From a virus: a stretch of DNA of 48,850 nucleotides. Both the position numbers and the translations under genes were made by a program. Of this stretch, positions 4,308 through 30,146 are shown one piece after another; position 1 is the first letter of the stretch, and each line of letters opens with the position of its first letter. The stretch covers positions 1-48,850 of IMG/VR virus record IMGVR_UViG_3300002460_000044; one strand, written 5' to 3'. The notes under the pieces are model-generated. The model did no database searches. It was given only the letters and a program-made list of their open reading frames with translations, and was not told where the DNA came from.

Positions 4308-4628
4308 TTAAGCGGTTGTAGTTGTACTACTACTAGTTGATGTGGTACTAGTACTAGTAGTTGTAGTGCTTGTAGTCGTACTGGTAGAAGTAGAGGTACT
4401 AGTACTAGTAGTGGTTGTGCTAGTGGAAGTACTCGTACTTGTAGTAGAGGTCAGGTCACTACCCTTCTGACTAGTACCAAGCCTCTTGCTTATCCCGCCA
4501 ATAATAGTATTAAATGTTGCATTTAAGGTATGCGTAAATTCATTTTTTCTCTGCTGGAAGGTACTAACTTTTCTATTCGTACCTCCCGACATGTCTTCGA
4601 TAGAGTATTCCTGTTCGTTGTCTGGCAT
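4308..4628 (-). CDS. Small structural protein with C-terminal Ser/Thr tract (mucin-like tail)
   Basis: 106 aa. A 59-aa unique N-terminal region is followed by a 46-residue pure S/T tract (4314..4451) and a terminal Ala. Tightly packed between structural genes. Confidence 0.6.
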   Translation of the reverse strand: MPDNEQEYSIEDMSGGTNRKVSTFQQRKNEFTHTLNATFNTIIGGISKRLGTSQKGSDLTSTTSTSTSTSTTTTSTSTSTSTSTTTSTTTTSTSTTSTSSSTTTTA

Positions 4629-4631
4629 GAT

Positions 4632-5780
4632 TTAATTCCAAAAATCTTCGTGAAGCTGATCCCTGTCCACTACTACATTACCGAATAATCTATGCAAAGC
4701 CCGTCTGCCATTAAAAGTTTTTAGGCTCCTTGGCTGTCCTTGTGGGCGCTTCTGTTTGCTATTAAGTTGTTCAAGTAAGGCAATACCCGTAAGTGATCGC
4801 CTATCTTGTACTTTGCCCGCTGGCCCCCAGAACCTATCCTCATATACTTTGGCTATTTCCTCCCTACCTCGTATTTTCTCTATCATAGCGATAGCGTAAT
4901 CTTCCAATAGCGCTGGTATTGGTACTTGAGTTTCATCAGCCACATCATCAAGGTCAGTCATCTCTTCAAAATAGCGGACGGTAAATGTACCTCGATCTGT
5001 AGTTTTAGGTATGGGCCAGACTCGGTAATAGCCTACTTCGGAAGTAGAGTCACCTTCTTCTATCGTGTAATCTTTTACGTAATCATCTCTTATTGTATCG
5101 TCATTTCTTTGGTCACGGGCTAGGTAATCAAATTCTATTCTGGGTACAAACTTTAATTGATAAAGCTCATTAGTGGTGCCATCATCAAAGTTATAAAGAA
5201 TAGTATCGACTGTGCCTCTAACCCCAACACCAGAAGGCAAGGCGTATTGGTTTGTACCTGCGGTGGTAGTGGTAGAAGAATTGGTGTTTCTTAGAAACCA
5301 CCAATCTGGTCTTACTCCTTGGATAATATCTTGAGCTTGGTTAATAAATCTAATAATTTCATCGTCACTTACCAATTTCCTTTCTTTGTCTTGGATTATT
5401 TTCCTTATCTGGCGGAGCATATATCCAAGAGAGTTACGATCATACCCAGTACCAGTTACCGTCGGTGAATACTCTGAATAGGTAAGTAAACTTGAATTAC
5501 GGAATCTAAATCTATATTCCCAAGTACTTGTTCCATCAGAATGGTAGTAAATACTGTCCTTATGATCCCATTGAATACCTATCTCGGTAAGCTCGGCAAA
5601 GCTCCCAGCACTGCTACTTCTACCCTCTATCGAAATAAAATCCCAATGAACTTTATATAGTGGTGCGTCTTTAGGGTGGGAAAACCTAAAAGCTGAATTG
5701 ATGTTTATTGTTTCATTACCAGACAAAGTGGAAATTTGTCTATTCTCGGTAAGCTCTTCGCCTATTTCTCCTGCCACCAC
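4632..5780 (-). CDS. Virion structural protein, function unknown; true 5' end uncertain (frame open up to 5924)
   Basis: 382 aa from GTG 5780. 48 further in-frame codons (5781..5924) translate to plausible protein (KWSNTIRKIIISNSVLTDDAYKTNLSSAYSSGTALTVYSNASFAANDF) but contain no ATG/GTG/TTG. Confidence 0.6.
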   Translation of the reverse strand: MVAGEIGEELTENRQISTLSGNETININSAFRFSHPKDAPLYKVHWDFISIEGRSSSAGSFAELTEIGIQWDHKDSIYYHSDGTSTWEYRFRFRNSSLLTYSEYSPTVTGTGYDRNSLGYMLRQIRKIIQDKERKLVSDDEIIRFINQAQDIIQGVRPDWWFLRNTNSSTTTTAGTNQYALPSGVGVRGTVDTILYNFDDGTTNELYQLKFVPRIEFDYLARDQRNDDTIRDDYVKDYTIEEGDSTSEVGYYRVWPIPKTTDRGTFTVRYFEEMTDLDDVADETQVPIPALLEDYAIAMIEKIRGREEIAKVYEDRFWGPAGKVQDRRSLTGIALLEQLNSKQKRPQGQPRSLKTFNGRRALHRLFGNVVVDRDQLHEDFWN

Positions 5781-5947
5781 AAAATCATTGGCAGCAAAAG
5801 AAGCATTGGAATAAACAGTTAAAGCTGTACCAGAAGAATAAGCAGACGATAGGTTTGTCTTGTAAGCATCATCGGTTAGTACTGAATTAGATATAATTAT
5901 CTTGCGAATGGTATTACTCCATTTCTAGTACCTTCCTTAAATAAATT

Positions 5948-8785
5948 TTACCCTAGCTTGCTATCAATGTCCAGTTCTTGGCTTTCAGTATCAATAATCA
6001 TATCTCCACCCCTGTCTACCTGAAGATTAAGTTCCTCTTTTTCCTCTTCACCTGAAATAACTAAATCTGTATCTACTACATCTATCACATAAGGAAATGT
6101 GGTGGTAGTACTGGTGCTAGTGGTCGTGGACGTTGAGGTGCTGGTTGAGGTAGATGCCAATGTAGTAGTTGTACTGCTACTTGTTGAAGTTGTACTAGTA
6201 CTGGTACTTGTGGTGCTACTGGTACTGGTAGTAGTAGTACTCGTGGAGGTAGTAGTCGACGTGGAACTACTAATAGTTGTGGTTGAGGTTGATGTAGATG
6301 TGGTGGTTGAAGTTGAACTGCTGGTCGTTGTTGAACTGGTGCTGCTAGATGTTGTCGTACTAGTACTCGAGCTAGTAGTAGAAGTTGACGTACTCGAAGA
6401 GGTAGTTGTGGTAGAGGTGGATGTAGAGGTTGATGTCGAGCTACTTGTAGACGTTGTACTCGTGCTCGTAGTTATTGAAGTCGATGTAGAACTACTAGTC
6501 GTAGTCGTAGAAGTACTAGTTTCTGTAGTTGTGGTCGAGGTGCTACTGGAAGTAGATGTTGTTGTAGTACTACTTGATGTACTAGAAGAGGTTGTTGTAG
6601 TAGAAGTACTTGAGCTTGTCGTGGTAGAAGTACTTGAACTTGTAGTCGTAGTACTTGTACTCGTAGATGTCGTGGTGGAAGTAGAGCTGCTAGTTGTGGT
6701 AGTACTGGTGGAAGTTGAGCTTGTTGTTGAGGTAGAAGAAGAAGTAGTCGTTGTACTTGTGGAAGTGGAACTCGAAGTCGTGGTGGTTGACGTTGATGTC
6801 GACGTACTAGTACTACTAGACGTAGTTGTAGTAGAAGTAGAAGATGATGTTGTGGTTGTGGATGTTGTAGTTCCTGCTGCTGTATAAGTAGCATAGATGG
6901 AGTATTTATTAGTACTGTGAGTTGGAACTAATGGATCAGGAAAATTAAAACTTCCAATGCCTTGCTCGTGTCCTTGGTTTGTATCCCCCGTATCATAATA
7001 CATATCCCAAACATCTTTTGGCAGAATATCACTCATCGCCATAAGAACATAATCCGTGCTCGCAGAGAGCGATTCTGAAGACATTGTTGCTGTTCTCCAA
7101 GCCGCAGTTGTATCAACTACATCCGTAGCAGCAGATGTCCCAATTAATGATAAATCGCTATGAAGATAAATTGCCGTCTTAAACTCATCACCCGCACTAT
7201 AGGCAGAAGCTTTACCATAAACAGTTATGCTATCTAATGTTCCTGCCCCAGCCCCCATTGTAAACACAGAACCCCTACTTTGATGATTTCCAGCATTAGC
7301 AACTGTTGCTCCTATTGTTGTATACCCAAATGTAGGGTCAATAATAATGGGATAAACTTCGTTATCTAAAAAACTTTGAGGAATTTCAATTGTCAATATC
7401 TTTTTATTAACATCAATATCTAATTTTCCCCACACCCAATTTCCATCAGCATCAATAATTTTAGGTCTGTAAATATGAAAGGCTTTACCTGCTCGATAAT
7501 TTTTACCTTCCAAGTTAGAGTAATCCCCAGATTTTCTTTTATGATAAACAGCGTAAGAACCTACTACATCTATAGGTCTAAAGGAATGATTATTTCGTTC
7601 TTGGGGCGTAAGAGCTGGTTGATAATAAAAGTTTAATTCTTTAGTTTCTATCGAAAATAATAATTGATTGGAAACAGGTTTATTTTTTAATTCAATCTCA
7701 AACTCATAACCATCTCCTCTTTCAACTTGATAGCTATTATCATAACTAGCATCTTCTATCCAACTACGCTGACCGAAAATAGATGAACAATTAGTTACTA
7801 TTTCTTGTTCTTCGGGGGTAAAATCTCCATTGGTCAATGTCAATCCTATGTTTTCGGCTATCTTATTTACAACCTCATCCCCTATAGCAATAGTTAATTC
7901 GGGATTTATTTCATTTAAGTTTCCAATACTTTCAATAACATTGGTTTTGTCTGGAATTACTTTATAAGCATCTTTTACATATGACGGGTCAGTTCCTACG
8001 TTAATAAAAAATAAGATTGTATTTCCTTCTCTCAATATCCCACAGAATTTCTTGTCAGTTCCATTTTTGAAATATAAATCATTTCCTCTTTTCACCACCG
8101 AAATTCCTTTTGAGGAAAGAACGCTTTGAACTGAATCCAACAAAACCGAATCGTCTATTATAATGTGATTGGGAGTATAAATACGGATATGAACTGTCTT
8201 TTGATCGGAATAAATAACCCCAGACTCACTTTGGGTAGGATTCCTCACGATTCTTACATCCGATGGTATCTTATTAGTATTTAAGTATTTATCAGTAGTA
8301 TAAAAACCGTGAAAATGTAAAAGTTTGTCTTTCTGAGTATAAGAAATAAATACTGGAGCGTTGAACCGCATCCGCTTAAAAAGCTCTACAAAAGCAGGAC
8401 CAGTAGGGGGCTCTATATTATTCAAACTTATATGCCGAGGTAAAGTAGACGTGGAAATTGGAAGTTCTGGATTACTTCTACTATAGAAACGAGCTTTGGT
8501 CTCTTCGCCTTGCCAAACTATCTTATCGGCTTGGGTGGAGACTGTCGGAGTTAGTTCATCGGTAATTAGTCTGGCGGAAAAATTGACTTCATTTGTTTCG
8601 TCTTTATTTCCCCATCTACAGACTTTTATTTGTGGAAGAAACTCACCTGCAACTTTGCTATCTCCTACTTCTACTTCAATTAAATCTTTTATGCTATCTT
8701 TAGGGGTAGCAAAAAAGGTATTATCTTTTACAAGATATTTCTGTGCGACTTCATCACTAATATTATTTATTTTAATTACTGGCAT
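5948..8785 (-). CDS. Large fibre/appendage protein: about 640-aa globular N-terminal region, 258-aa Ser/Thr stalk, 49-aa acidic C-terminal domain
   Basis: The track ORF 5948..8824 starts at a TTG. In-frame ATG 8785 is preceded by SD GGAGGAAGGG, so I prefer it. The S/T tract spans 6098..6871. The tract is followed by the motif TTFPYVIDV. Confidence 0.7.
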   Translation of the reverse strand: MPVIKINNISDEVAQKYLVKDNTFFATPKDSIKDLIEVEVGDSKVAGEFLPQIKVCRWGNKDETNEVNFSARLITDELTPTVSTQADKIVWQGEETKARFYSRSNPELPISTSTLPRHISLNNIEPPTGPAFVELFKRMRFNAPVFISYTQKDKLLHFHGFYTTDKYLNTNKIPSDVRIVRNPTQSESGVIYSDQKTVHIRIYTPNHIIIDDSVLLDSVQSVLSSKGISVVKRGNDLYFKNGTDKKFCGILREGNTILFFINVGTDPSYVKDAYKVIPDKTNVIESIGNLNEINPELTIAIGDEVVNKIAENIGLTLTNGDFTPEEQEIVTNCSSIFGQRSWIEDASYDNSYQVERGDGYEFEIELKNKPVSNQLLFSIETKELNFYYQPALTPQERNNHSFRPIDVVGSYAVYHKRKSGDYSNLEGKNYRAGKAFHIYRPKIIDADGNWVWGKLDIDVNKKILTIEIPQSFLDNEVYPIIIDPTFGYTTIGATVANAGNHQSRGSVFTMGAGAGTLDSITVYGKASAYSAGDEFKTAIYLHSDLSLIGTSAATDVVDTTAAWRTATMSSESLSASTDYVLMAMSDILPKDVWDMYYDTGDTNQGHEQGIGSFNFPDPLVPTHSTNKYSIYATYTAAGTTTSTTTTSSSTSTTTTSSSTSTSTSTSTTTTSSSTSTSTTTTSSSTSTTSSTSTSTTTTSSSTSTTTSTSTSTTTTSSSTSTTTSSSTSTTTTSSSTSSSTTTTSTSSSTSTTTTETSTSTTTTSSSTSTSITTSTSTTSTSSSTSTSTSTSTTTTSSSTSTSTTSSSTSTTTSSSTSSTTTSSSTSTTTSTSTSTTTISSSTSTTTSTSTTTTSTSSTTSTSTSTTSTSSSTTTTLASTSTSTSTSTTTSTSTTTTFPYVIDVVDTDLVISGEEEKEELNLQVDRGGDMIIDTESQELDIDSKLG
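6098..6871 (-). repeat. Ser/Thr-coding low-complexity tract (258 codons) inside 5948..8785
   Basis: Translation is S/T only apart from single E, I, I, L and A residues. Plus-strand triplets are restricted to NGT / NGA / RCT. The repeat is degenerate at DNA level. Confidence 0.9.
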
Positions 8786-8824
8786 AAACCCTTCCTCCAT
8801 AAGTATCCGTGGGTCATATTTCAA

Positions 8825-11800
8825 TTATACCCCGATTGCTATTCCAAAGTCATAACCCCTTTCCACATTTATCGGATAAGGCACTGTTGTAGTAGTGCTA
8901 GAGCTAGTACTTGTGGTAGTGGTGGAAGTACTGGTTGAAGTACTCGTGGTTGTGGTTGTCGTCGAGGTAGAAGTCGTGCTGCTTGTACTCGAGCTAGTAC
9001 TGGTAGTGGTTGTACTAGTAGAGGTTGTACTACTTGTACTCGTGCTGGTTGAAGTGGAGGTAGTTGAACTGCTAGAAGAGGTGGTTGTAGTAGAAGTACT
9101 ACTGCTAGTACTAGTCGAACTAGATGTGGTGGTTGTACTGGTAGATGTACTACTCGATGTAGAAGTGCTGGTAGATGTCGTTGTTGTACTTGAACTAGTA
9201 CTGGTAGAACTTGTCGTGCTAGTAGAAGTACTGGTAGTGGTTGTACTACTACTCGTTGTCGTAGTTGAGGTGGACGTACTAGTGCTAGTACTACTTGATG
9301 TAGAGGTCGTTGTAGTCGAAGTCGATGAAGATGTTGTAGTGGTGCTAGTTGAGGTAGTGCTACTAGTGCTGGAACTAGTTGTGGTCGTAGTCGTCGAGGT
9401 TGAGGTAGTCGTCGTAGAAGAACTGGTACTAGTAGAACTAGTAGTACTCGTACTCGTGGTAGTGGTTGAAGTACTAGTGCTGGTAGTTGTACTCGTACTG
9501 GTAGATGTCTCTGTCGTAGTAGTTGATGTAGATGTAGTACTGGATGTACTAGAGCTGGTTGTAGTTGTACTGGTAGACGTGGAAGAACTAGTTGTAGTTG
9601 TGCTAGTCGAAGTGGATGTTGTACTAGACGTTGACGAGCTTGTAGTGGTGGTGGAAGTTGAAGATGACGTGCTAGTAGTAGTGCTGGTTGAGGAACTGGT
9701 CGTTGTCGTTGAAGTACTGGTAGACGAAGTTGTAGACGTGCTAGAGCTAGTGGTCGTTGTGCTAGTAGAACTGCTTGTCGTAGTCGTTGAAGTACTACTG
9801 CTAGTTGAGGTGCTACTACTAGTAGAAGTAGTGGTCGTACTAGTGCTGGTACTTGATGAAGTACTGGTACTGGTACTACTTGAGGTGGTTGTTGTCGAAG
9901 TACTCGAGCTTGTCGTGGTAGAAGTAGAACTACTCGTTGTGGTAGTCGAGGTACTGGAAGAAGTAGTTGTTGTAGACGTTGATGTGCTACTAGTCGTACT
10001 CGTACTCGAGGATGTCGTGGTTGTACTAGTGGACGTAGAGGTACTACTTGTCGTTGAAGTAGACGAACTAGTAGTTGTAGTGCTTGAGCTGGTACTCGTT
10101 GTCGTACTTGTTGAAGATGATATTGTAGTAGTACTAGTAGAAGTAGAACTGCTTGTAGTAGTCGTACTCGTACTAGTCGAAGATGAGGTTGTAGTTGTAG
10201 ATGTACTGCTACTGGTTGTTGTAGTAGAAGTTGTTGTACTCGAAGAAGTTGTGGTCGTAGACGTACTACTGGAAGTCGTAGTTGAGGTGCTACTACTTGT
10301 AGTGGTGGTAGAAGTAGAGGTGGAAGTAGTGCTACTAGTAGATGAACTTGTAGTAGTCGTCGATGTAGAACTACTAGTCGTGGTGCTAGTAGAGCTACTT
10401 GTAGTCGTAGTAGATGTACTAGAGGAAGTAGTCGTTGTCGAGCTAGATGTAGATGTACTTGTGCTACTGCTGGTGGTGGTTGTAGATGTACTACTTGAAG
10501 TAGTAGTCGTAGAACTGCTAGTACTGCTAGTTGTACTAGTGGAAGACGAGGTAGTGGTGGTACTAGATGAAGTACTCGAACTCGTCGTTGTAGAAGAAGA
10601 ACTTGAGGTTGTCGTGGTGCTAGTAGAAGTACTACTCGTAGTAGAAGTACTTGATGACGTTGTTGTAGTCGACGTTGACGAACTGGTAGTCGTGGTAGAC
10701 GTACTAGTACTACTCGTAGTTGATGTGGAAGAACTAGTTGTAGTCGTTGAGGTGCTTGTACTAGTAGAACTAGTAGTACTAGTAGAAGAACTCGTGGTCG
10801 TAGTGCTTGTACTGGTACTACTGCTGGTAGTTGTTGAGGTGCTGCTTGACGTGGTAGTGCTCGATGTCGAACTAGAAGTTGTCGTACTTGTACTGGAACT
10901 TGTTGTAGTTGTAGAAGTGCTAGAACTCGTTGTTGTGGTTGATGTAGAAGTAGAAGTTTGAGTTGTAGTAGTACTGGTACTGGTACTACTAGAAGTTGTG
11001 GTTGTTGAACTACTAGTTGTTGTTGTCGATGTACTACTACTCGTAGTGGTGGTAGAAGTAGAGGTACTTGAACTAGTAGTTGTAGTTGACGTTGATGATG
11101 ATGTTGTTGTAGTACTCGTGCTAGTTGATGAAGAGGTGGTCGTCGTCGAAGTACTGCTACTAGTGGTAGTTGTGCTTGTAGAAGAACTGGTTGAACTACT
11201 GGTGCTTGACGATGTTGTTGTCGTACTGGTTGAGCTAGAGGTGCTACTCGTCGTCGAGGTGGAGCTACTTGTAGTTGTAGTGCTAGTACTCGTAGATGTG
11301 GTGGTAGAAGTAGAGCTGCTAGTCGTGGTTGTAGAGGTACTAGAAGAGGTTGTTGTTGTCGAAGTAGAAGTCGAAGAACTAGTAGATGTAGAACTACTAG
11401 TGGTACTGGTGCTTGTACTCGTGCTACTGGTGGTTGAAGTAGAAGAACTAGTTGTCGTAGTACTAGAACTTGTCGTTGAGGTAGAGGTGGACGAGCTAGT
11501 TGTAGTAGTAGAGGTACTCGTCGAACTAGATGTAGTAGTGGTAGACGTACTGGTGGTTGTAGTCGACGTTGACGAGGAAGTACTGGTTGACGTAGTGGTG
11601 GTACTCGTACTACTCGAGGTTGTCGTAGTGGACGTACTTGTGGATGTAGAAGTACTGCTACTGGTAGTTGTCGTGCTTGTTGAACTCGAGGTCGTTGTTG
11701 TTGAACTACTTGAACTGGTACTTGTAGAAGTCGAACTCGAAGTAGTCGTAGTACTTGTGCTAGTACTAGATGTGGTGGATGTACTTGACGACGTGGTTGT

Positions 11801-12193
11801 TGTACTCGTTGATGTACTAGTAGTGGTGGTGGAAGTACTGGTGCTGGTTGTCGTAGACGTAGATGAACTTGTAGTGGTTGTACTAGTACTTGTACTACTA
11901 CTAGTCGAAGTAGAAGACGACGTAGTAGTAGTAGAGGTAGAAGTAGAGGTGCTAGTAGTTGTAGAAGTACTACTAGTAGTGGTGGTTGTTGATGAACTGG
12001 TACTAGTACTGCTAGTCGTACTAGTAGAAGTACTGGTTGTTGTAGTACTAGTCGAGGATGAAGTTGTAGTCGAACTACTGGTGGTGGTGGTTGAAGATGA
12101 GGTGGTAGTGGAGGTAGTGGTTCCTTCCGCTTGCAGCGTAATAGGAAATTCTAGTATTAATACTTTGCCATACGAACGGAGAAATCGAGCCAT
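8825..12193 (-). CDS. Giant mucin-like Ser/Thr protein (1122 aa) with short unique N- and C-termini
   Basis: A single 3.37-kb frame is open. N-terminus is MARFLRSYGKVLILEFPITLQAEG (24 aa) and C-terminus is VPYPINVERGYDFGIAIGV (19 aa). The 1079 residues between are S/T with only three interruptions (Q, I, E). It starts 19 nt after the upstream stop, and its stop abuts the next ORF. Confidence 0.7.
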   Translation of the reverse strand: MARFLRSYGKVLILEFPITLQAEGTTTSTTTSSSTTTTSSSTTTSSSTSTTTTSTSTSTTSSTSTSSSTTTTTSSTSTTTSTSTSTSTTTTSSSTSTSSSTSTSTTTTSSSTSTTTSTSTSTTTTSTSTSTTTTSSSTSTTSSTSTSTTTTSSSTSTSTSSSSSTTTTSSSTSTTTTSSSTSTSTSTSTTTTSSSTSTTTTSTSTSSSTSTTTTSTSTTTTSSSTSTSTTTTSSSTSTSTTSSSTTTTSSSTSTTSSTSTSTSTTSSSTSTSSSTSTSTTTTSSSTSTTTTSSSTSTTTSTSTSTTTTSSSTSTTSSTSSSTSTTTTSSSTSSSTSSSTSTTTTSSSTSTTTTSSSTSTSTTTTSSSTSTTTTSSSTSTSTTTTSSSTSTTTTSSSTTTTSSSTSTSTTTTQTSTSTSTTTTSSSTSTTTTSSSTSTTTSSSTSSTTTSSSTSTTTSSSTSTSTTTTSSSTSTTSSTSTSTSTTTTSSSTSTTSSTSTSTTTTSSSTSTTTTSSSTSTTSSTSTSTTTTSSSSSTTTSSSTSSSTTTTSSSTSTTSSTSSSTTTTSSSTSTTTTSSSTSTSTSSSTTTTSSSTSTTTTSSSTSTTTSSSTSTTTTSSSTSSTTSTSTSTTTTSSSTSTTTSSSTSTTTTSSSTTTSTTTTSSSTSTTTTSSSTSTSTTTTSSSTSTSTTTISSSTSTTTSTSSSTTTTSSSTSTTSSTSTSTSTTTTSSSTSTTSSTSTSTTTTSSSTSTTTTSSSTSTTTSSSTSTTTTSSSTSTSTSSSTSTSTTTTSTSSSTSTSSSTSTTTTSSSTSTTTTSSSTSTTSSTSTSTTTTSSSTSTTTSTSSSTSTTTTSSSTSSTTSTSTSTTTTSSSTSTSTTTTSSSTSSTTSTSTTTTETSTSTSTTTSTSTSTTTTSTSTTSSTSTSSSTTTTSTSTTTTTTSSSTSSTTSTSTTTTSSSTSTTTTSTSSSTSTSTSTSTTTTSSSTTTTSTSTSTTSSTSTSSSTTTTSTSTSTSSSTSTSTTTTSSSTSTSSSTSTTTTSSSSSTTSTSTSTSTSSTTSTSTTTTSTSSSTSSTTSTSTTTTTTSTSTSTSTTTTSTSSSTTTTVPYPINVERGYDFGIAIGV
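8885..12121 (-). repeat. Ser/Thr-coding tract (1079 codons); recurring degenerate unit about TTTTSSSTST
   Basis: Protein-level repeat using all 6 Ser and all 4 Thr codons (verified in sampled stretches). I saw no long exact DNA repeat by eye. Confidence 0.9.
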
Positions 12194-22651: not shown

Positions 22652-23255
22652 TGTCTAAAAGCTGCAAATTAGTACCAGCCATAATATGAGTTATAATGGT
22701 CTTGTTAGTATCAGTCCACTTACCTAACCGCTTATACAAATCTTGCTCTGCTAACAAGGAAAGATTCTCATTCCACCTGCCTATTTCTTCAAAATGCTTC
22801 TTTGTAATCATCATTAGTCCAGCATCTCTACCACCCCTCATACTCTCTTGATCAAATGAATCTCTATTATAAGTGGCCTTCACGTATTCTCTGCTTCTTG
22901 GGACTTGATCTGGAAATACTGCGTCATAACCTTGTTCAATATATTGCCTAAGACCTGGCAACCATCCTTCGTGAACAAAAACATCGTTTTGAATAAATAC
23001 TAGGTACTCACCTCTAGCAACTTGTGCTCCTAGATTCATGCAAACGGTGTAGCCTGGATCATTGGGTAAATTAAAGTATTTATCCACTTTCAATACGTTG
23101 TAATCATCTCTTATTGGAAATTTAGGTACTGGATTCATCACAATCAGTTCGTAGTCTTCTGGATCAGTAAACTTGGTTATATTGGCAATACAAGCCATCG
23201 ACATGTGAGCGTTAAATCTGGAGTTGTTAAAACAGGTCAAAATTATACTCGTCAT
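22596..23255 (-). CDS. GT-A fold glycosyltransferase
   Basis: 219 aa. MTSIILTCFNN..., DPGYTVCMNLGAQVARGEYLVFIQNDVFV. ATGA overlap with the upstream stop. Confidence 0.55.
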   Translation of the reverse strand: MTSIILTCFNNSRFNAHMSMACIANITKFTDPEDYELIVMNPVPKFPIRDDYNVLKVDKYFNLPNDPGYTVCMNLGAQVARGEYLVFIQNDVFVHEGWLPGLRQYIEQGYDAVFPDQVPRSREYVKATYNRDSFDQESMRGGRDAGLMMITKKHFEEIGRWNENLSLLAEQDLYKRLGKWTDTNKTIITHIMAGTNLQLLDNDPEEYDRKMEEDAQRTN

Positions 23256-24133
23256 AGATTTGCCTTTATATCCCTTTCTAAACTGGTAAGCAAGGGTCGC
23301 CTATAAATACTTTTTAGTACCTGAATATCAGCTATGGCACTTTTCACCCCAAAGTCAGTATTCTGATAAACTACCTCGATATTTTTCTTTCGACTGGCCT
23401 TTTTGAATATCTCGGCTAGTTTGTTCATTGAGGTTCCTAACCCACTACCAACATTGATAAATTTACCCTCAAAATCTGGGTTCTTAATCGCTTCGAGAAT
23501 GATCTGGACTATATCCACTATACTGACAAAATCCCTAACTTGCGTACCATCCCCGTGAATTACCAATTTCTTGTCCTGCACCCCATTTAAGAACCTATTT
23601 ATCACACTGTCATCCTGCGGGGTCGGGTTAAAACCATAGATATTAAAAAATCTAAATACAACAATCGGAAGTCTATATCTTAAAGCCGCACACAAGTACT
23701 CACATTCTATCTTGCTTTGCCCATAAGGGTTATTTACTTCCAACTCGTCTGTTTCTCTTATCGCTGTCCTCCCAACAATTTTATATACAGAAGCCGAAGA
23801 AGGAAATATAAACTTGGCTTTGTTTTGCTCGGCTGCCAATAATGCTCTAAGAGTACCTTTGGTGTTCAAGGCTAAAGTAAACTCTGGGTCTTTTATTGCT
23901 TGGCTAACCGAAACTTGAGCCGCTAAGTGGATAATTACGTCAGCATCTTTGGTTTCTTCCATAAAATCCGGACTGAATATATCTTTTCCGTCACGTATAT
24001 CCCAACCAACAGCGTTTGGTAAGGCCCGCATTAGATGAGTACCAATGAAACCACGACTGCCTGTTACGACAATTTTCTTTTGTTTGGTTAGTTTTTTTAG
24101 CATTTCATTTAGGGAGCCAAGTTTCGTTGTCAT
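23252..24133 (-). CDS. NAD-dependent nucleotide-sugar epimerase/dehydratase (extended SDR)
   Basis: 293 aa. Rossmann motif VVTGSRGFIGTHL, SSASVY, and catalytic YGQSK (YxxxK). Confidence 0.75.
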   Translation of the reverse strand: MTTKLGSLNEMLKKLTKQKKIVVTGSRGFIGTHLMRALPNAVGWDIRDGKDIFSPDFMEETKDADVIIHLAAQVSVSQAIKDPEFTLALNTKGTLRALLAAEQNKAKFIFPSSASVYKIVGRTAIRETDELEVNNPYGQSKIECEYLCAALRYRLPIVVFRFFNIYGFNPTPQDDSVINRFLNGVQDKKLVIHGDGTQVRDFVSIVDIVQIILEAIKNPDFEGKFINVGSGLGTSMNKLAEIFKKASRKKNIEVVYQNTDFGVKSAIADIQVLKSIYRRPLLTSLERDIKANL

Positions 24134-24809
24134 ACGCCTCCATCTGGTCGAACTGCCCTACATAATCTTTTAATTCAGCATTGTGTTTTTGCATCTCTGG
24201 TGTAAACGATTCGGGATAACCCCAATTAGTCTTTCCAAAAGGATGATAAGCTCTAAGCTTAGTGGTTCTACCCGTTTTCCAGCCATTACCTTGTAACCTG
24301 CTGCAAATCCATCTTTCTTCGTTATTTCTGCCACTACTTATTTTATGTTCCCAACCGTTTACTTTTCTTACTGCCTCTGTCCTCATTATTCTCATTACCG
24401 CCCCGCACATATTTACTTCCTTCACATCTTCTGGGTCTTTTGGGTCAAAACCAACCGCCCCAATAAGAATGTGAGGATGTAAAGAAATTGCTCCGTAAGT
24501 TGGTCTTTCATCCATAAACTTAACCATTTGTGAAAGCCAATCTGGCTCTGTCTGCGGTACATAAATATCATTATCACTCGTAATAAAATATTCGCTTTCA
24601 GATAGAGCCAAGGCAATATTCCACGCTCCGTGTATCCCAATATTTTCCGATAAACCAACATACAAATCCACTTCATCCTTAAATTCCTCATTTCCGCCGT
24701 TATCAATAATTGTTAGCCTATACGGGGTCTTAGTACGCTCTTTCAGATACTTAATTGTATTTGCAGTGAAATGCTGTCTTAGAAACGTGGTGAGAAATAT
24801 ATCTATCAC
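24105..24809 (-). CDS. GT-A fold glycosyltransferase
   Basis: 234 aa. RLTIIDNGGNEE, NIGIHGAWNIAL, ITSDNDIYV. The GTG start overlaps the upstream stop as GTGA. Confidence 0.55.
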   Translation of the reverse strand: MIDIFLTTFLRQHFTANTIKYLKERTKTPYRLTIIDNGGNEEFKDEVDLYVGLSENIGIHGAWNIALALSESEYFITSDNDIYVPQTEPDWLSQMVKFMDERPTYGAISLHPHILIGAVGFDPKDPEDVKEVNMCGAVMRIMRTEAVRKVNGWEHKISSGRNNEERWICSRLQGNGWKTGRTTKLRAYHPFGKTNWGYPESFTPEMQKHNAELKDYVGQFDQMEAYDNETWLPK

Positions 24810-25603
24810 TCTACCCCCTGTTTTGAATGGACTATGTACAAGTATTCATCTATTGGTTTTGAGTGGTACTTTCTTGTGTAGGAATACCATAAAGCAAAAT
24901 CATTTCCCCACGGGTTACCTAATTCTTTAATTATCTTATTTGGTTCAGCTTCATGATCTACCATAAAGAATTCACGCAGTTCTGGATATTTTATTTGGTA
25001 ATAAGCCGAGAAATCATACGGACTTCCCATATATAAATCCCTAACTCCTCCGTAATTTATCTCCGTACAATCTATATCCTTAATATGCGTAGGAGGATAA
25101 GCCCTCAAGTCATCATAAACACCTCTATGCCAAACAAACGTCCCATTTACTATATTTCCCCCTCCAAACACCTCGTGGCCTACTTTTAGTTTTTTTGGCT
25201 TAAAGGTTCCTCTCAAAACGGTCCCGCCGTCTGCATGAACATACCTAGCCCCAAAGTTAAACATTTTATACTTAGGCCACTTTCTAAAAAAGTAATCCAC
25301 CCTTTCCAAATAATGCTTCTCATATTCGTCATCACTATCCAAAAGGCAAAATATCTGTCCCTGAGCGTGCTTGAAGCCTTCATTCAAGGCTACCACCCTT
25401 TCATTGTGAGACACATTTACCACATTCAGTCTTGAATAAGGCGGTATCTCAAAGTCTTGGGTACTACCGTCATTGACTACTATATGTTCGTAGTCCCTAA
25501 AAGTTTGAGCCTCCACACTATCAATAGCCCTTTTTAGACTCTCCTTCCTATAATTATTCCAAATGTTTACTGGAGTTATAATTGACAGTCTTGGACTAGC
25601 CAC
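24806..25603 (-). CDS. Family 2 glycosyltransferase
   Basis: LSIITPVNIWNNYRKESLKRAIDSVEAQTFRDYEHIVVNDGS and LDSDDEY (DxD). I prefer GTG 25603 (SD AAGGAG 7 nt upstream) over track start 25636. Confidence 0.7.
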   Translation of the reverse strand: MASPRLSIITPVNIWNNYRKESLKRAIDSVEAQTFRDYEHIVVNDGSTQDFEIPPYSRLNVVNVSHNERVVALNEGFKHAQGQIFCLLDSDDEYEKHYLERVDYFFRKWPKYKMFNFGARYVHADGGTVLRGTFKPKKLKVGHEVFGGGNIVNGTFVWHRGVYDDLRAYPPTHIKDIDCTEINYGGVRDLYMGSPYDFSAYYQIKYPELREFFMVDHEAEPNKIIKELGNPWGNDFALWYSYTRKYHSKPIDEYLYIVHSKQGVE

Positions 25604-26366
25604 CCCACTTCTCCTTATACTTCTCCCTGCTCTCATTCATCAAATCAGGGGTTTCGACCATCCCCGTGCTAGTACCCCCAATCACATGGTAAATATTAAC
25701 CTTTTTAGTACTGGCATACTTTTTACCTGCCTCATCCATCCTCTTGAGGAAATCCAAGTCCTCTAAATAAACAAAAAACTGCTCGTCAAATGTTCCAATT
25801 TCCCTAAAAAGGGATTTCCTAGCCAAAACGCAGGAAAAGTCCCTAAAATCGCTAAAAGCCTCTCGAAAATCTTTGCCCTCCCAAAGTTTTGCCTTATCAG
25901 AAGCCTCTACCGCCCTAGAAAAAGGCTCACCATACATAGGAGTAGCCATTACTAGGTCAAGCTCTTGCAGGGCCTCCTGAAGCCCCTCAAGCCAAGAGTC
26001 AAAAACCATAGCGTCATTATTAAGCAAGCAGACGTACTCGCCACTACTTACCCTAATTGCTTGATTCCAAGCAGCGGCTATTCCCTTATTTTGTTCATTT
26101 ACTATTACTTTATCTACTTTGTAATCCGAAAGTTTAGCAAGTTTTATTGGAGAAGCATTATCCACCAATATAATTTCGTAAGGAAGTTTAGTGTATTCTC
26201 TCACCGATCCTATACAATTTCCTGTGTAGTGAAGCAAAGGATAGTTGAGATTATGACAAAGAATAATTATTGAAGTTAATCCTGCGACTTCGCTAGGATT
26301 ATCGGCAACATTTTGTGGGCTATTTATAGTAGTCCAGGTTTCCTGACTAATGGTTTCAGTTTCCAT
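25596..26366 (-). CDS. Family 2 glycosyltransferase
   Basis: 256 aa. TSIIILCHN, EIILVDNASP, NKGIAAAWNQAI, LLNNDAMV. Confidence 0.65.
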   Translation of the reverse strand: METETISQETWTTINSPQNVADNPSEVAGLTSIIILCHNLNYPLLHYTGNCIGSVREYTKLPYEIILVDNASPIKLAKLSDYKVDKVIVNEQNKGIAAAWNQAIRVSSGEYVCLLNNDAMVFDSWLEGLQEALQELDLVMATPMYGEPFSRAVEASDKAKLWEGKDFREAFSDFRDFSCVLARKSLFREIGTFDEQFFVYLEDLDFLKRMDEAGKKYASTKKVNIYHVIGGTSTGMVETPDLMNESREKYKEKWGG

Positions 26367-27114
26367 AGGATTTATTTATTTCCTGTACTTTTTGTAATAG
26401 TTGATTTTGGCTAAAGTTAGCAAACGCTTCTAAGTCTTTAGGCAAACATCTGCCGCCAACGCCTTTGTGGCCTTTATGGCCTACGTAAAAGTGATGTTGA
26501 CTTCCCCAAGGATGCTCAAGAAGCCTATCTCTAATATAGGTATAATTGGCACCTATTTTCTGGGCTATATCGTTCATTTCCTCGGCAAAGACTACTTTTA
26601 AAGCAAAAAAGCTGTTGAAAGCGTATTTGGTCATCTCGGCAGTTATTGTGTCAGTCATCTTAGGTTGGAGATACTTATACCTAGCGTCGTAAATAGCTTT
26701 TACCTCATTACCGTAGTTTGGATTGTCCGCCCCAATTATTACCATTACCGGTCTTTTAGCGTCTAGTTCCCATTGGCTTTCGGTAAGAAACTCTGGATTC
26801 GATACCACTCTATCCATATTCATACTTTCCATAATTGCTCTGGCTGTTCCTGGAATTACTGTGGAACGAATAATATAGAGGGGATTCGCCCTTATCCCCT
26901 CAATTTGCTTGATGGTGTCTCTGATTGCCGTTGTGTCACAAGTACCTTCCTTGGTGGGCGTAGGCAAACAGAGGAATACGTAGCGGCAATTTGCAGCATC
27001 ATTTAAGGTAATATTGCTATCACCATTTATATCAAAGTATTTAGTTATTCCAAAGGCTAGGGCGGTAGCCTTGCCGACTACACCCCAACCAATAATACAA
27101 GAATTTTCCATCAA
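26356..27114 (-). CDS. UDP-glucose/GDP-mannose 6-dehydrogenase-like protein, short form
   Basis: 252 aa. GWGVVG Rossmann motif, NPEFLTE, KYAFNSFFALKVVFAEE, and catalytic-Cys motif GGRCLPKD about 27 aa before the stop. The usual C-terminal UDP-binding domain appears to be absent. Confidence 0.6.
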   Translation of the reverse strand: MMENSCIIGWGVVGKATALAFGITKYFDINGDSNITLNDAANCRYVFLCLPTPTKEGTCDTTAIRDTIKQIEGIRANPLYIIRSTVIPGTARAIMESMNMDRVVSNPEFLTESQWELDAKRPVMVIIGADNPNYGNEVKAIYDARYKYLQPKMTDTITAEMTKYAFNSFFALKVVFAEEMNDIAQKIGANYTYIRDRLLEHPWGSQHHFYVGHKGHKGVGGRCLPKDLEAFANFSQNQLLQKVQEINKSYGN

Positions 27115-28442
27115 TAGAGTAAAGGTTCAAGCTCATGTTTGAATATAAAATCTAAGTTTCTTTCCTTCCTCAGTCTTGTGGCCATGGCCATTTCTGGATG
27201 TTGTAGTCTGGCCGCTATTGCTCCTGCCGTATCATAATGATAATCTTTCTCGTATTTCTTTCTTTCATCATCCGAAGCGTTCTGCGGCCCGTAAGCTGTA
27301 TTTGTATTTCCATCCATAGCGTTCATTATATCTATATTACTGGAGTACTTTCTAAATATGGCGTTCTCACCGAAAATATTTCTGAAAGGCGGAAAGTCAA
27401 AGTTTAAAACCACGACTTGCTTAGTCAGACCAGCTTCCTGAGTAATTAGAGAATAGCTTTCACTAGCCGAAGGCATAATAAATACATTTGAAAGAAGCTG
27501 GAAATCCCTTACCACGCTTTGAGGCACTTCTACCTTCCAATTCTCGTTTTCCTCGCTGGTAAAAGTAATTTCATTGCTGTTTAGGCCATAATCTATGGCT
27601 ATCTGCTTTAGCTCTTCCCTATAAGTAACTTTATCTCCGCCAGTAGAGTGGAAGTCAATTATTATTACTCTTACTGAAAGGTCGAAATCTTTCAATTTAG
27701 CCATTGTTTTGATGACGTATTGAACCTGCTTGCCTCTATCTAACCTTATCGGATAGGTACAAATAGCGTCTGCCGAAAGTATCTTTTTCTTGTCAACCAC
27801 CTCCTGTACTTCCTTACTTATACCCAAAAAACCGCAAATGTCAGTTGGGTGGTGAACTACTTTTACCAACTCATCACTAACCCCAAAGTTCTCGGCTATT
27901 CTCGGAATTGAATAATGATTAAAGAAGACGTAGTAGGAGTTAGGAAATGGTTTTCGGACTAAGTCGGTGTACTCACTACCAAAATTCTGCAATGCTCCCA
28001 AGGTGACTGGACTAGTTGCCGAGTGTATCCAGTGCAACCACTTAGCATTTTTCTTAGCGGCTACTCTTCTTGAGGCAAAATTATGCTTTAAAGCAGCGGG
28101 CTGATAAATAATATCGTGGGTTAGTACTACACTACCATCAGTAATTATTTCATCAAGCCTTCTTTCAATATTAGCCACATCTTCATCAAAAGTGGGGTCT
28201 TTTTTTATTTCGTTGTGGCAAGGAACAAGGGGAATTTTTTCTATAGTTACATCTGGATGGGCGTACATCTGGTCTGGCTGGAAACTTTCTTGGACAATAA
28301 CAGTCACTTTATACCTGTTACGGGTAAACATCTTAATCTGATCCTGAACCACCCGATTAAGACTGTAAGCTTCACTTATTTCGGAAAATGTCGTAAATAG
28401 GATTATTTTCCTCGAGAAGTCAGTACCTTCCATTATTTTCAA
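27111..28442 (-). CDS. GT-B fold (GT1/GT4-like) glycosyltransferase; first gene of the island
   Basis: 443 aa. EX7E motif ESYSLITQE followed by AGLTKQVVVLN. The track start is TTG 28442; ATG 28433 is an alternative. Confidence 0.55.
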   Translation of the reverse strand: MKIMEGTDFSRKIILFTTFSEISEAYSLNRVVQDQIKMFTRNRYKVTVIVQESFQPDQMYAHPDVTIEKIPLVPCHNEIKKDPTFDEDVANIERRLDEIITDGSVVLTHDIIYQPAALKHNFASRRVAAKKNAKWLHWIHSATSPVTLGALQNFGSEYTDLVRKPFPNSYYVFFNHYSIPRIAENFGVSDELVKVVHHPTDICGFLGISKEVQEVVDKKKILSADAICTYPIRLDRGKQVQYVIKTMAKLKDFDLSVRVIIIDFHSTGGDKVTYREELKQIAIDYGLNSNEITFTSEENENWKVEVPQSVVRDFQLLSNVFIMPSASESYSLITQEAGLTKQVVVLNFDFPPFRNIFGENAIFRKYSSNIDIMNAMDGNTNTAYGPQNASDDERKKYEKDYHYDTAGAIAARLQHPEMAMATRLRKERNLDFIFKHELEPLLY

Positions 28443-28481: not shown

Positions 28482-28805
28482 CTAGTCGTACACTACGAAT
28501 GCCTCACCATTAAAGTCGGCACCTTGTTCCAGCTCTACGTAAAGTCCCTTTGTCATATTTATTGGCCTGGCAGGGGTAAAACAGGTGCTTTCACCTGTAT
28601 TAGCAGCCAACACAAAAGAGTCCGCTGAAGGAGCTGGTTGGACCGAACCGTTAGCAGAATCGTACACTCTTACAGCCGCTGCCGAACCGCCAGCAGTGAT
28701 TACAACAGCAACTAGTTCTACTCCACCAGCAGTTGAAAGTTGCTCACTGGTGTTATTACTATTCAGCGTGTATTTATATCTGGCTCTGCTAGGTTTGTTT
28801 ATCAT
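28482..28805 (-). CDS. Small beta-rich hypothetical structural protein (107 aa) at the upstream edge of the island
   Basis: ORF in the late operon with Ala/Gly/Val-rich beta-like composition. No motif recognised. Confidence 0.45.
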   Translation of the reverse strand: MINKPSRARYKYTLNSNNTSEQLSTAGGVELVAVVITAGGSAAAVRVYDSANGSVQPAPSADSFVLAANTGESTCFTPARPINMTKGLYVELEQGADFNGEAFVVYD

Positions 28806-28808
28806 AGA

Positions 28809-29255
28809 TTAAAAATACCCTGGCTTCCTTTTAAAGGAGCCCATATACTCATCATCAGTCTGCAAGCCTTCCCCATACCAAGGAACACCGTCTTTATCCA
28901 CACCCTCGCCATAAGGGATTCCTTCGGGGTCAGTTAATCTTGAAGCTCTCTCTTTATCAGCAATTTCCTGCGGTGTCACAAATTCTTCGCCTTCTTCTGT
29001 TTTTGGTTCTTCAGTATGTTGTTTTTCGTGTTGTATCACGGCCACCTTATAATCGTTAGCATAATCTCCATATTTACAAGTAAATTTACCTTCTAGCTTG
29101 ACCTCCTCTAACCACGGATAGGTCTGTTGTAGCCTATTAGCCACAGGGTTATCGAAAGTTTTAGTTTCTCCTAAACCAAGGGCATACATTTTCTTCTGGA
29201 ACAAAAAGTCTCTTATTGGTGCCCCTTTTTCTTTTGAATTAGTTAGAGTTATCAT
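28809..29255 (-). CDS. Hypothetical protein (148 aa) with an acidic central segment
   Basis: ORF tightly packed in the late operon. No motif recognised. Confidence 0.45.
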   Translation of the reverse strand: MITLTNSKEKGAPIRDFLFQKKMYALGLGETKTFDNPVANRLQQTYPWLEEVKLEGKFTCKYGDYANDYKVAVIQHEKQHTEEPKTEEGEEFVTPQEIADKERASRLTDPEGIPYGEGVDKDGVPWYGEGLQTDDEYMGSFKRKPGYF

Positions 29256-29262
29256 AATCTTC

Positions 29263-29535
29263 CTATAATGTAGTAGTCGTGCTAGTACTCGTGCTGGTAG
29301 AAGTAGTAGTACTAGTGGAGCTACTTGTGCTAGTCGTAGTCGTACTGGTACTTGTAGTAGTCGTGGAAGTTGACGTACTGGTGGTTGTCGTTACATCCCC
29401 AAACACCCACTGCGTACCGTTATAAACTACCCATTGGTTAGTATCATTTTTGAAGAAGAAATCTCCTGCGATTGGCTCGCTTGGAAATGTTGTTTGGACT
29501 CTTCTTCTTGCTGTAAAACTACTAAACTTTGTCAT
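29263..29535 (-). CDS. Capsid-adjacent small protein, paralog 3: 48-aa N-domain plus 41-aa Ser/Thr tail
   Basis: 90 aa. The N-domain carries GDFFFKNDTNQWVVYNGTQW. S/T tract at 29269..29391. It is one of three tandem paralogs downstream of the capsid gene. Confidence 0.6.
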   Translation of the reverse strand: MTKFSSFTARRRVQTTFPSEPIAGDFFFKNDTNQWVVYNGTQWVFGDVTTTTSTSTSTTTTSTSTTTTSTSSSTSTTTSTSTSTSTTTTL

Positions 29536-29537
29536 AA

Positions 29538-29810
29538 TTACCCCGTTGTGCTAGTTGATGTACTCGTGCTGGTACTAGTTGTCGTAGAAGTACTAGTTGT
29601 CGTAGTACTGGTGCTAGTACTGGTGCTGGTTGTCGTTGACGTACTTGTACTGGTTGTACTGAAAACATAAACTAGCCAATTATTTCCCGAATATCTCGCC
29701 CAAGCATTAGTGCTGGTGTTGAAGTACTCATCACCTGACACTGGCCCCGTTGGGTCGCTTGTTGCTGTTCGTATTCTTCCTTTTAGATTGCTTAAATGAG
29801 TGTCAGCCAT
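29538..29810 (-). CDS. Capsid-adjacent small protein, paralog 2: 50-aa N-domain plus 39-aa Ser/Thr tail
   Basis: 90 aa. The N-domain carries GDEYFNTSTNAWARYSGNNW. S/T tract at 29544..29660. Confidence 0.6.
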   Translation of the reverse strand: MADTHLSNLKGRIRTATSDPTGPVSGDEYFNTSTNAWARYSGNNWLVYVFSTTSTSTSTTTSTSTSTSTTTTSTSTTTSTSTSTSTSTTG

Positions 29811-29819
29811 AATTCATCC

Positions 29820-30146
29820 TTATATAGTCGTAGTCGTACTGGTACTGGTAGTAGTCGTACTGGTACTGGTGCTAGTTGTTGTTGTACTCGTGCTTGTTGA
29901 GCTGGTACTAGTTGATGTACTCGTACTTGTACTGGTACTCGTTGTTGTTGATGTACTGGTAGTCGTTGTCGACGTTGACGTTGTACTAGACTGCGCAAAC
30001 GCCAAACCTCGCCACTGAACACCATCCCATCTCATCCACGTATTCTGGGTTGTATTGTAGTATTCATCACCCACATCGGGGCTGCTTGGATTTACTGTTC
30101 CTGTTTTTAGATGTCCTCTTAAACTTGATACTTTAGTTGTAGGCAT
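29820..30146 (-). CDS. Capsid-adjacent small protein, paralog 1: 52-aa N-domain plus 55-aa Ser/Thr tail
   Basis: 108 aa. The N-domain carries GDEYYNTTQNTWMRWDGVQW. S/T tract at 29826..29990. Confidence 0.6.
   Translation of the reverse strand: MPTTKVSSLRGHLKTGTVNPSSPDVGDEYYNTTQNTWMRWDGVQWRGLAFAQSSTTSTSTTTTSTSTTTSTSTSTSTSTSTSSTSTSTTTTSTSTSTTTTSTSTTTTI

Follow-up and report, generated by a model that had tools for sequence, protein, structure and literature searches.

The viral DNA analysed here (IMG/VR record IMGVR_UViG_3300002460_000044, positions 1 to 48,850; the whole stretch of 48,850 nucleotides is referred to as the window) contains six genes for proteins with serine/threonine (S/T) tracts and an island of glycan-enzyme genes in one operon, which together may constitute a phage-encoded system for glycosylation of the virion. 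The complete, circularly assembled genome is 48,775 bp long, which corresponds to the window minus a 75-bp terminal direct repeat, and the phage is podovirus-like. The late operon on the minus strand covers ~44 kb (~90% of the genome), and the plus strand is used only at ~39.9–44 kb, for small early-type open reading frames (ORFs). The island sits between the head and tail genes on the same strand. The six S/T proteins, with the positions of their tracts in parentheses, are as follows.

4308..4628, minus strand: small S/T protein directly after the adaptor gene; conserved 59-residue N-terminal domain, 46-residue S/T tract (4314-4451), terminal A

5948..8824, minus strand: fibre protein; 651-residue N-terminal globular region, 258-residue S/T stalk with 5 non-S/T residues (6098-6871), 49-residue C-terminus FPYVIDV...SKLG

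8825..12193, minus strand: giant S/T filament protein of 1122 residues; 24-residue N-terminus, 1079-residue tract TTTTSSSTS(TS)n with 3 non-S/T residues (8885-12121), C-terminal VPYPINVERGYDFGIAIGV

29263..29535, minus strand: putative mini-fibre paralogue 3; 48-residue N-domain, 41-residue S/T tail (29269-29391), terminal L

29538..29810, minus strand: putative mini-fibre paralogue 2; 50-residue N-domain, 39-residue S/T tail (29544-29660), terminal G

29820..30146, minus strand: putative mini-fibre paralogue 1, first gene after the capsid gene; 52-residue N-domain, 55-residue S/T tail (29826-29990), terminal I

A six-frame scan identified exactly six S/T runs in the window, all on the minus strand and all within the ORFs named in a preliminary description of this DNA. 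The fibre ORF had been placed there at 5948..8785; its tract was correct and its start was not, as 8785 is an internal ATG and the ORF extends to 8824. The tracts total 1,518 codons (4,554 nt) and, with the 13,431-nt island, occupy 36.9% of the genome, in agreement with the earlier estimate of about 37%.

All ten Ser/Thr codons are present in the tracts, ranked by frequency as elsewhere in the genome. The longest exact DNA repeat is 23 nt, compared to 22.0 ± 2.5 nt in synonymous-codon shuffles of the 1079-codon tract. No k-mer of at least 31 nt is repeated within 5948-12193, and Tandem Repeats Finder (TRF) shows short imperfect arrays only. Since all ten codons occur in genomic order and the repeat length matches that of the shuffles, the tracts are neither a slippage array nor an assembly artefact; both were ruled out by the TRF, k-mer and shuffle analyses. 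At the peptide level, the 1079-residue tract follows a grammar in which T runs are mostly 1 or 4 and S runs mostly 1 or 3 residues long, with a repeat unit TTTTSSSTS, a period of ~9 and autocorrelation peaks at 9, 17 and 26.

Comparison with related loci (designated by L numbers) points in the same direction. In the tails of orthologous mini-fibres, 73–100% of the S-versus-T pattern is kept (random expectation ~52%), and codon identity there is ~0.26–0.5. In L025, whose adaptor is 67% identical to that of the window, in-frame peptides are conserved after the tracts despite different tract lengths: its giant tract, cut by the contig end, finishes with TTTTVPYPIDVERG..., compared to TTTTVPYPINVERG... 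in the window, and the next protein has another N-domain, again an S/T stalk, and a C-terminal FNYPIEVEKGYDF...SKLG. The tracts are thus translated parts of the structural operon that are under selection at the protein level. For comparison, 120 IMG/VR contigs with at least 16 consecutive WCN codons, not selected for relatedness, were sampled. The longest S/T tract among them is 81 residues, and 3 of the 120 have any similarity to proteins of the window.

Synonymous turnover in the S/T tails (29263-29810 and orthologues) is 2-3 times that of the flanking codons. Differences at four-fold sites between the window and L001 (11340-11880) amount to 0.25 in the capsid gene, 0.32 in the N-domain of paralogue 2 and 0.79 in its tail, where 5 of 15 conserved serines have switched between TCN and AGY codons and the S/T pattern is 100% identical. 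Possible explanations for this turnover are repeat avoidance under selection and patchy gene conversion with the 4.5 kb of DNA that codes for S/T as donor.

Each of the three paralogues after the capsid gene consists of an N-domain (48–58 residues across the family, consensus TH...L.G....T..P..P..GD.Y.DT..N....Y.G..W) followed by an S/T tail. A single terminal residue (V, G, L, I or A) follows the tail in 75 of 101 distinct sequences from relatives. The tail of paralogue 1 varies from 55 to 104 residues among relatives; that of paralogue 2 is 39 residues in all orthologues seen, and that of paralogue 3 is 41 in nearly all (40–42 in a few). The 39- and 41-residue lengths are therefore near-invariant across phages whose N-domains are only 30–60% identical. 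In an AlphaFold model, the N-domain is a four-stranded sheet (predicted local distance difference test, pLDDT, 81–92) and the tail is disordered (pLDDT <50). Pfam profiles match the N-domain below gathering scores (DUF2793 in 7 of 35 members and Mtd_N in 2 of 35; best E 0.0019), and so do, below threshold, the PHROG families ‘virion structural protein’ and ‘head-tail adaptor’ (E 5e-4 to 8e-4). A Foldseek search gave no significant match; the best, at E 0.12, is the N-terminus of CBA120 TSP3, and other top matches, also below threshold, are a siphophage baseplate chain, Mtd and collagen trimerisation domains. All of these similarities, though below threshold, point towards anchor modules of fibres or spikes. 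In two database homologues, the N-domain motif precedes ordinary fibre sequence instead of S/T. The paralogues are read here as putative mini-fibres, each consisting of an anchor or trimerisation module and an S/T tail; that the three assemble as a heterotrimer is speculation.

A profile of the N-domain found 19 matches in a collection of 5.8 billion proteins, compared to 987 for the adjacent glycosyltransferase (GT) of family GT4, so the mini-fibre genes are largely absent from protein databases; a word-based prefilter lowers the sensitivity for 50-residue queries and bears on the figure of 19. In L026 (8308-9195) and L027 (8080-8990), the public annotation has antisense ORFs (223 and 173 residues, respectively) where the mini-fibre genes lie. 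S/T ORFs are often missed by gene callers or replaced by the antisense strand, which would amount to an annotation blind spot if the reading proposed below is correct.

The neighbourhood of the S/T genes is defined by the following additional features.

30211..31128, minus strand: major capsid protein, synteny anchor

28482..29255, minus strand: two small conserved genes (148 and 107 residues) between the mini-fibres and the lead GT4, syntenic in relatives; no Pfam, PHROG or NCBIfam match

4632..5780, minus strand: SU10-type head-tail adaptor (Pfam SU10_adaptor, E 4e-15), synteny anchor for the fibre genes

IMG/VR was scanned for relatives with the capsid protein (22 loci) and with the GT4 (80 loci), and 58 loci were kept after de-duplication and exclusion of those whose capsid gene is followed by less than 2.5 kb. 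Between one and four S/T-tail genes lie between the capsid gene and the GT4 in 51 of the 53 distinct loci that have GT4 downstream; the other two (L074 and L105) have interrupted S/T-rich stretches. None of the five capsid relatives without GT4 has S/T-tail genes. The conserved order is capsid, S/T mini-fibres, usually one or two small genes, GT4, the dehydrogenase-like gene (in most loci) and GT2 genes. A database search of this kind had been proposed in the preliminary description, and its outcome supports a co-occurrence of S/T tracts and the GT4. The pairing of enzymes and tracts is a hallmark of a large uncultured phage family rather than of a single genome.

The remaining three S/T proteins are encoded around the adaptor gene. 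The L025 orthologue of 4308..4628 extends into a 220-residue domain that matches the PHROG family ‘minor tail protein’ (E 9e-7). The 651-residue region of the fibre protein has no family match in Pfam or PHROG; its relatives are one distant IMG/VR locus (33% identity) and one locus from a metagenome-assembled genome (MAG), L107 (38%), both unannotated. The proteins with 258- and 1079-residue tracts share a C-terminal peptide, [VF]PY.I[DN]V, and the start of the C-terminal peptide of the giant protein, VPYPI[ND]VERG, is kept after the tract in L025. Should the giant protein be attached through this C-terminal peptide, its 1079-residue tract would form a free filament with a length of roughly 270–380 nm at 0.25–0.35 nm per residue. 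Long S/T tracts are found in the tail modules of many relatives (289 and 409 residues in L073, at least 314 in L069), and the contigs of relatives often break inside them. In L024 (1-484), whose adaptor is 93–94% identical, the position directly upstream of the adaptor is taken by another gene, which is unrelated to the S/T fibre gene of the window and without any counterpart in the window; close relatives are therefore mosaic in their fibre cassettes.

The glycan-enzyme island (15012..28442) consists of 16 enzyme ORFs and one inserted HNH gene, listed here in the direction of transcription.

27111..28442, minus strand: lead glycosyltransferase, GT4 (Pfam Glycos_transf_1)

26356..27114, minus strand: nucleotide-sugar dehydrogenase-like protein, 252 residues (UDPG_MGDP_dh N-terminal and central domains, GGRCLPKD Cys motif)

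25596..26366, minus strand: GT2 (Pfam E 1.4e-20)

24806..25636, minus strand: GT2 (Pfam E 5.1e-16)

24105..24809, minus strand: GT2 (Pfam E 9.8e-10)

23252..24133, minus strand: short-chain dehydrogenase/reductase (SDR) epimerase/dehydratase (Pfam E 9e-38)

22596..23255, minus strand: GT2 (Pfam E 3.2e-9)

21989..22651, minus strand: S-adenosylmethionine (SAM) methyltransferase (Pfam)

20886..22004, minus strand: DegT/PseC-like pyridoxal phosphate sugar aminotransferase or dehydratase (Pfam DegT, E 5e-75)

20090..20935, minus strand: GT2 (Pfam)

19600..20328, minus strand: HNH_3 homing endonuclease inserted in the island, outside the pathway (Pfam)

19137..19646, minus strand: Methyltransf_24 methyltransferase (Pfam)

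18178..19140, minus strand: GT-B-like Glyco_trans_1_2 (Pfam E 1.3e-4, below gathering score)

17495..18271, minus strand: SAM methyltransferase (Pfam)

16536..17522, minus strand: GT4 (Pfam Glycos_transf_1)

15914..16564, minus strand: NodB-like candidate (by alignment to an L238 island protein only)

15012..15926, minus strand: GT2 (Pfam)

Neighbouring ORFs of the island abut or overlap by 4–50 nt, consistent with the translational coupling suggested earlier. The profile search identified glycan-enzyme families: nine GTs (one of them below gathering score), three methyltransferases, the SDR, the DegT enzyme and the dehydrogenase-like protein of the original list were all recovered by Pfam. 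The NodB-like assignment of 15914..16564 is only indirectly supported, since the ORF has no Pfam or NCBIfam match of its own and aligns (pairwise E 2e-5, including HGW[RS]HDD) to an L238 island protein carrying Polysacc_deac_1. The methyltransferases are of small-molecule or sugar types (Methyltransf_11/23/25/24, one TylF-like). None of the sugar enzymes reached a curated NCBIfam cut-off; the similarities are at the family level, to PseC/RfbH, GalE/LegB and nucleotide-sugar dehydrogenases, so that the sugar made cannot be named from them. Orthologues of the enzymes in 22596..26366 are present in relatives. In L027, Glyco_trans_1_2 is on record for the positionally corresponding 330-residue gene, with no mark of a sub-threshold score.

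No credible transmembrane segment was found in the island enzymes; the single signal, in 20090..20935, is due to an over-extended TTG start. No gene for a flippase (Wzx), polymerase (Wzy), ABC transporter, polyprenyl-phosphate transferase or Gtr-type protein was found in the ORFs scanned. The absence of membrane enzymes, carrier genes, Gtr and integrase argues against lipid-linked envelope glycans and lysogenic conversion.

The dehydrogenase-like gene lies immediately after the lead GT4, or one small gene further, in most relatives and is absent in L012. Its product is always ~251–258 residues long in the window, L026, L027 and L238, with a Rossmann GxGxxG and GGRCLPKD and no C-terminal UDP-binding domain. 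The accessory content of the island varies, with cytidylyltransferases in L026, a NodB deacetylase in L238 and HNH insertions at differing places. In L027 (11338-11556), a 72-residue gene with an Acb2/Tad1 hairpin domain (anti-CBASS/anti-Thoeris sponge fold) is found right after the lead GT4.

The lead GT4 is the most conserved gene of the island and always its first. Its AlphaFold2 model (pLDDT 85) has a GT-B fold in agreement with retaining GT4 enzymes, and the top Foldseek matches are MshA, GlgM, BshA, sucrose-phosphate synthase and WaaG; the structural neighbours also include a methylmannose-polysaccharide mannosyltransferase. This structure prediction agrees with the GT assignment made earlier. 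The protein has no NCBIfam match and no sequence match in the PDB, and tblastn against 50,697 GenBank phage records returned nothing. In the 5.8-billion-protein collection it has 987 homologues at E <= 1e-5, of which the top 120 are at least 59% identical, ~440 residues long and encoded on contigs of up to 45–52 kb. An exhaustive HMMER search of 1.84 billion cluster representatives (50% identity) returned 728 clusters at E <= 1e-3 and 102 at E <= 1e-30, which indicates a narrow, specific GT4 clade. GtfA and SdgA/B, the bacterial cytoplasmic O-glycosyltransferases for Ser-rich repeats, are likewise GT4 enzymes, and the lead GT4 is a candidate initiating protein O-glycosyltransferase.

The exhaustive search also returns GT4 forms of ~650–690 residues. 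The closest cellular homologues are sulfotransferase-GT4 fusions of ~686 residues on chromosomal contigs of marine gammaproteobacterial MAGs (L110, 9314-11374; L114, 9320-11386), with a DUF5672 gene close upstream and, in L114, GH32 and sugar major facilitator superfamily genes also nearby. Considered as a clue to the acceptor, these cellular homologues are uninformative, being sulfotransferase fusions in unrelated sugar contexts.

Together, these data suggest phage-encoded glycosylation of virion proteins, in which dedicated mucin-like S/T fibres would be O-glycosylated in the cytoplasm late in infection, a reading to which we assign a probability of about 0.6. Since envelope, lysogenic-conversion and DNA targets are argued against (for DNA, see below), a soluble, co-made acceptor is indicated, for which the S/T polypeptides are the obvious candidates; Ser/Thr-only tracts are classic O-glycan acceptors. 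In the proposed mechanism, the single minus-strand operon would co-express the head and tail genes, the six S/T-tract acceptors and the 16 soluble glycan enzymes late in infection. The lead GT4 would most likely add the first sugar to Ser/Thr hydroxyls in the cytoplasm, and the GT2, GT4 and GT-B-like enzymes would elongate the glycan. The SDR, DegT, truncated dehydrogenase and NodB-like proteins could convert host nucleotide sugars to amino, deoxy or uronic forms, and the three methyltransferases could cap the glycan. The products would be bottle-brush filaments held on the particle by short non-S/T modules, comprising three mini-fibres (39–55-residue tails), the adaptor-adjacent protein with a 46-residue tail and two long fibres with 258- and 1079-residue stalks. 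In this scheme, glycosylation of the tracts, the identity of the initiating enzyme and the location of each protein on the virion are all inferred. The coat could be hydrated and protective or adhesive, extending the reach of the particle. The preliminary description had proposed a self-contained enzyme-plus-substrate system. The conserved pairing and the soluble enzymes bear out its genetic side, and glycosylation itself would be the proposed consequence; the ‘partly methylated heteroglycan’ named there is what the gene list would suggest, and its proposal that the three paralogues coat the head is a conjecture from their position after the capsid gene. The extended claim is put at even odds: that a widespread uncultured family of ~45–52-kb podophages might make ‘phage mucins’, turning S/T homopolymers of up to >1000 residues into bottle-brush glycopolymers by means of a self-contained, rapidly diversifying ~9-GT island. 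On the particle, these would take the form of capsid mini-fibres and of fibrils with lengths of hundreds of nanometres, and the island, with its variable content, would act as a serotype-like locus for the virion surface.

Several observations weigh against the glycosylation reading. The pairing follows one clade, so that the loci are not independent and the Fisher's p of 5e-6 overstates their independence. About 18 of the 80 loci that carry the GT4 lack an S/T tract in the 10 kb considered; in one of the loci without a nearby tract, L052, early genes precede the island. By eye, a few GT- or methyltransferase-like genes are present in more distant capsid relatives, with no S/T tails beside the capsid gene, which indicates that glycan genes can occur without this type of acceptor. 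Linkers of 16–81 S/T residues are common in unrelated viral contigs that lack homologues of the island enzymes. The virion placement of the mini-fibres is suggested only by sub-threshold similarities (Pfam E >= 0.002, Foldseek 0.12). The GT-B fold of the lead GT4 is silent on its acceptor, and the enzymes closest to it in structure have small molecules or lipopolysaccharide as substrates; its cellular homologues (32–45% identity) are sulfotransferase-GT4 fusions with no S/T tracts nearby.

The S/T linkers of unrelated contigs, the structural neighbours of the lead GT4, the sugar-metabolism contexts of its cellular homologues and the GT4-bearing loci lacking a nearby tract favour an alternative in which the tracts are unmodified disordered spacers (entropic bristles or flexible stalks) and the island makes or alters another glycan, such as a soluble or cytoplasmic polysaccharide or host envelope precursors, with roles in lysis, superinfection exclusion or receptor masking. 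This alternative is considered unlikely: no membrane-associated enzyme, flippase, polymerase or lipid-carrier transferase accompanies the island, which lies inside the late structural operon with no integrase detected; the order of capsid, S/T tails and GT4 holds in 51 of 53 loci; and the 258- and 1079-residue tracts are far beyond the range of the sampled linkers. The island might also glycosylate other virion proteins, such as capsid or tail, with the S/T proteins an unrelated trait of the family. The targets in mycobacteriophages are capsid and tail-tube subunits (PMC12363180), and the distant capsid relatives with GT-like genes and no S/T tails would fit. The capsid protein here has no S/T extension, the S/T-tail genes lie directly between the capsid gene and the lead GT4 family-wide, and Ser/Thr-only tracts are the classic O-glycan acceptors, so this explanation is regarded as improbable.

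Modification of the phage DNA with sugars has very little to recommend it. Clusters of GT genes that build mono- to trisaccharides on 5-hydroxymethylcytosine (5hmC) exist, some near structural genes as here, and they need a cytosine methyltransferase and a 5mYOX/TET enzyme (bioRxiv 10.1101/2023.12.21.572611). Grouped phage GTs are a common feature of both; unlike those clusters, the window has neither a C5-methyltransferase nor a TET-like gene, no DNA_methylase, Tet_JBP or hydroxymethylase domain being found in any ORF scanned, and the three methyltransferases are of small-molecule or sugar types. DNA hypermodification was accordingly rejected, as was O-antigen conversion of the Gtr/Oac type, for which no transmembrane island enzyme, GtrA/GtrB/GtrV or integrase was found. 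It is very unlikely that the tracts are low-complexity DNA that is never translated, or that they result from misassembly. Several reading frames stay open there, public gene callers sometimes take an antisense ORF, and contigs of relatives often end within tracts. Against this stand the lack of repeated k-mers of at least 31 nt, the codon usage, which is that of the genome, the in-frame C-terminal peptides conserved after the tracts in the divergent L025, and the near-invariant 39- and 41-residue tails of divergent phages.

Among known systems, virion glycosylation by mycobacteriophages (Che8, Corndog and Myrna; Freeman et al. 2023) is one of the closest; experiments have shown that their own GTs glycosylate capsid and tail-tube proteins (PMC12363180, PMC11256854, PMC13313380). 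There, as proposed here, a tailed phage employs its own GTs, sometimes with a methyltransferase, to build a glycan coat on virion proteins. The mycobacteriophages have few GT genes and target capsid or tail-tube subunits; the window has nine GT-family genes plus tailoring enzymes (13.4 kb) and dedicated S/T acceptors of up to 1079 residues. In contrast to the mycobacteriophage acceptors, the candidate acceptors are separate proteins, the capsid protein itself having no S/T tract. The enzymes are also not orthologous: the lead GT4 has no GenBank phage match, and the GT2 at 25596 has generic matches of 22–34% identity, with no Mycobacterium phage in the organism summary or among the matches listed. 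The system would thus work like mycobacteriophage virion glycosylation and would be new in acceptor type, scale and non-orthologous enzymes. A literature search in which subscription journals were mostly not covered found no natural phage, beyond the mycobacteriophages, with both S/T-tract virion proteins and GTs.

The closest mechanistic resemblance would be to serine-rich repeat proteins (SRRPs) of Gram-positive bacteria such as Fap1 and GspB, whose very long Ser-rich tracts are O-glycosylated in the cytoplasm by GtfA/GtfB and follow-on GTs, a GT4 enzyme starting the chain (PMC5207161, PMC6973325, PMC5578698). Both have long Ser-rich tracts and soluble GTs, including GT4, encoded at the same locus, and the SRRP product is a surface fibril. 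Unlike SRRP systems, the window has no SecA2/SecY2 export or LPXTG anchor domain in any ORF scanned, its repeats are pure S/T (TTTTSSSTS) rather than SxSx dipeptides with A/V/E, and the lead GT4 has no specific similarity to GtfA/SdgA in NCBIfam or the PDB, its fold matches being those of generic GT-B enzymes. Membership among the SRRP systems was ruled out by the lack of a GtfA/B pair, SecA2/Y2 export and wall anchor, and the window system is best described as a probable analogue. The Mimivirus fibril and chlorovirus capsid glycans are made by virus-encoded sugar-tailoring enzymes and GTs, independently of host pathways (PMC7019647). Those are eukaryotic viruses with hundreds of genes, in contrast to a 48.8-kb tailed phage with 37% of its genome given to the system. 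We know of no giant-virus fibril protein that is an S/T homopolymer.

To our knowledge, tailed phages were thought until 2023 not to glycosylate their particles. If the proposed reading is correct, a phage without detectable replication genes gives 37% of its genome to a mucin-like coat system, with a lead enzyme found in about a thousand metagenomic relatives. Virion glycosylation would then be an ecological strategy of environmental phages, of interest beyond phage therapy, and long glycan fibrils could serve to capture hosts, to keep particles colloidally stable or to shield them from proteases and grazers. For glyco-engineering, the island would be a compact set of soluble enzymes for O-glycosylation in the cytoplasm, with acceptor tags as short as 39–41 residues.

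The remaining head and tail set comprises small terminase, large terminase (PHROG 38, E 3e-102), portal, a gene in the scaffold position, the major capsid protein and a beta-helix tailspike. A Pfam scan of the window ORFs detected no polymerase, replication, recombination, integrase or DNA-modification gene, and Rfam and ARAGORN detected no RNA family and no tRNA in the window. Megablast of 36.9 kb (12200-48850) against GenBank phages gave no nucleotide match. No GenBank phage record is more than 39% identical to the capsid protein, Bacillus phage PK1 being the top match, followed by spring-water, Roseobacter, Pelagibacter, Caulobacter and cyanophage records. Host assignment from MAG binning proved unreliable, with relatives binned in unrelated phyla (Dojkabacteria, Bathyarchaeia, Nanoarchaeota, Marinimicrobia, Gemmatimonadota). 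A host with peptidoglycan is suggested by two genes, one for an M23 peptidase (44559..45425) and one for a protein with an SLT transglycosylase domain (42718..43230).

Three HNH endonuclease genes are found in the window, at 14560-14940 (plus strand), 19600-20328 (minus strand) and 41351-41590 (plus strand). The first, an HNH_3 gene (E 5e-9), lies on the strand opposite to the island in an apparent 500-bp gap at its distal edge, and the minus-strand ORF 14503..14997 that overlaps it is probably spurious.

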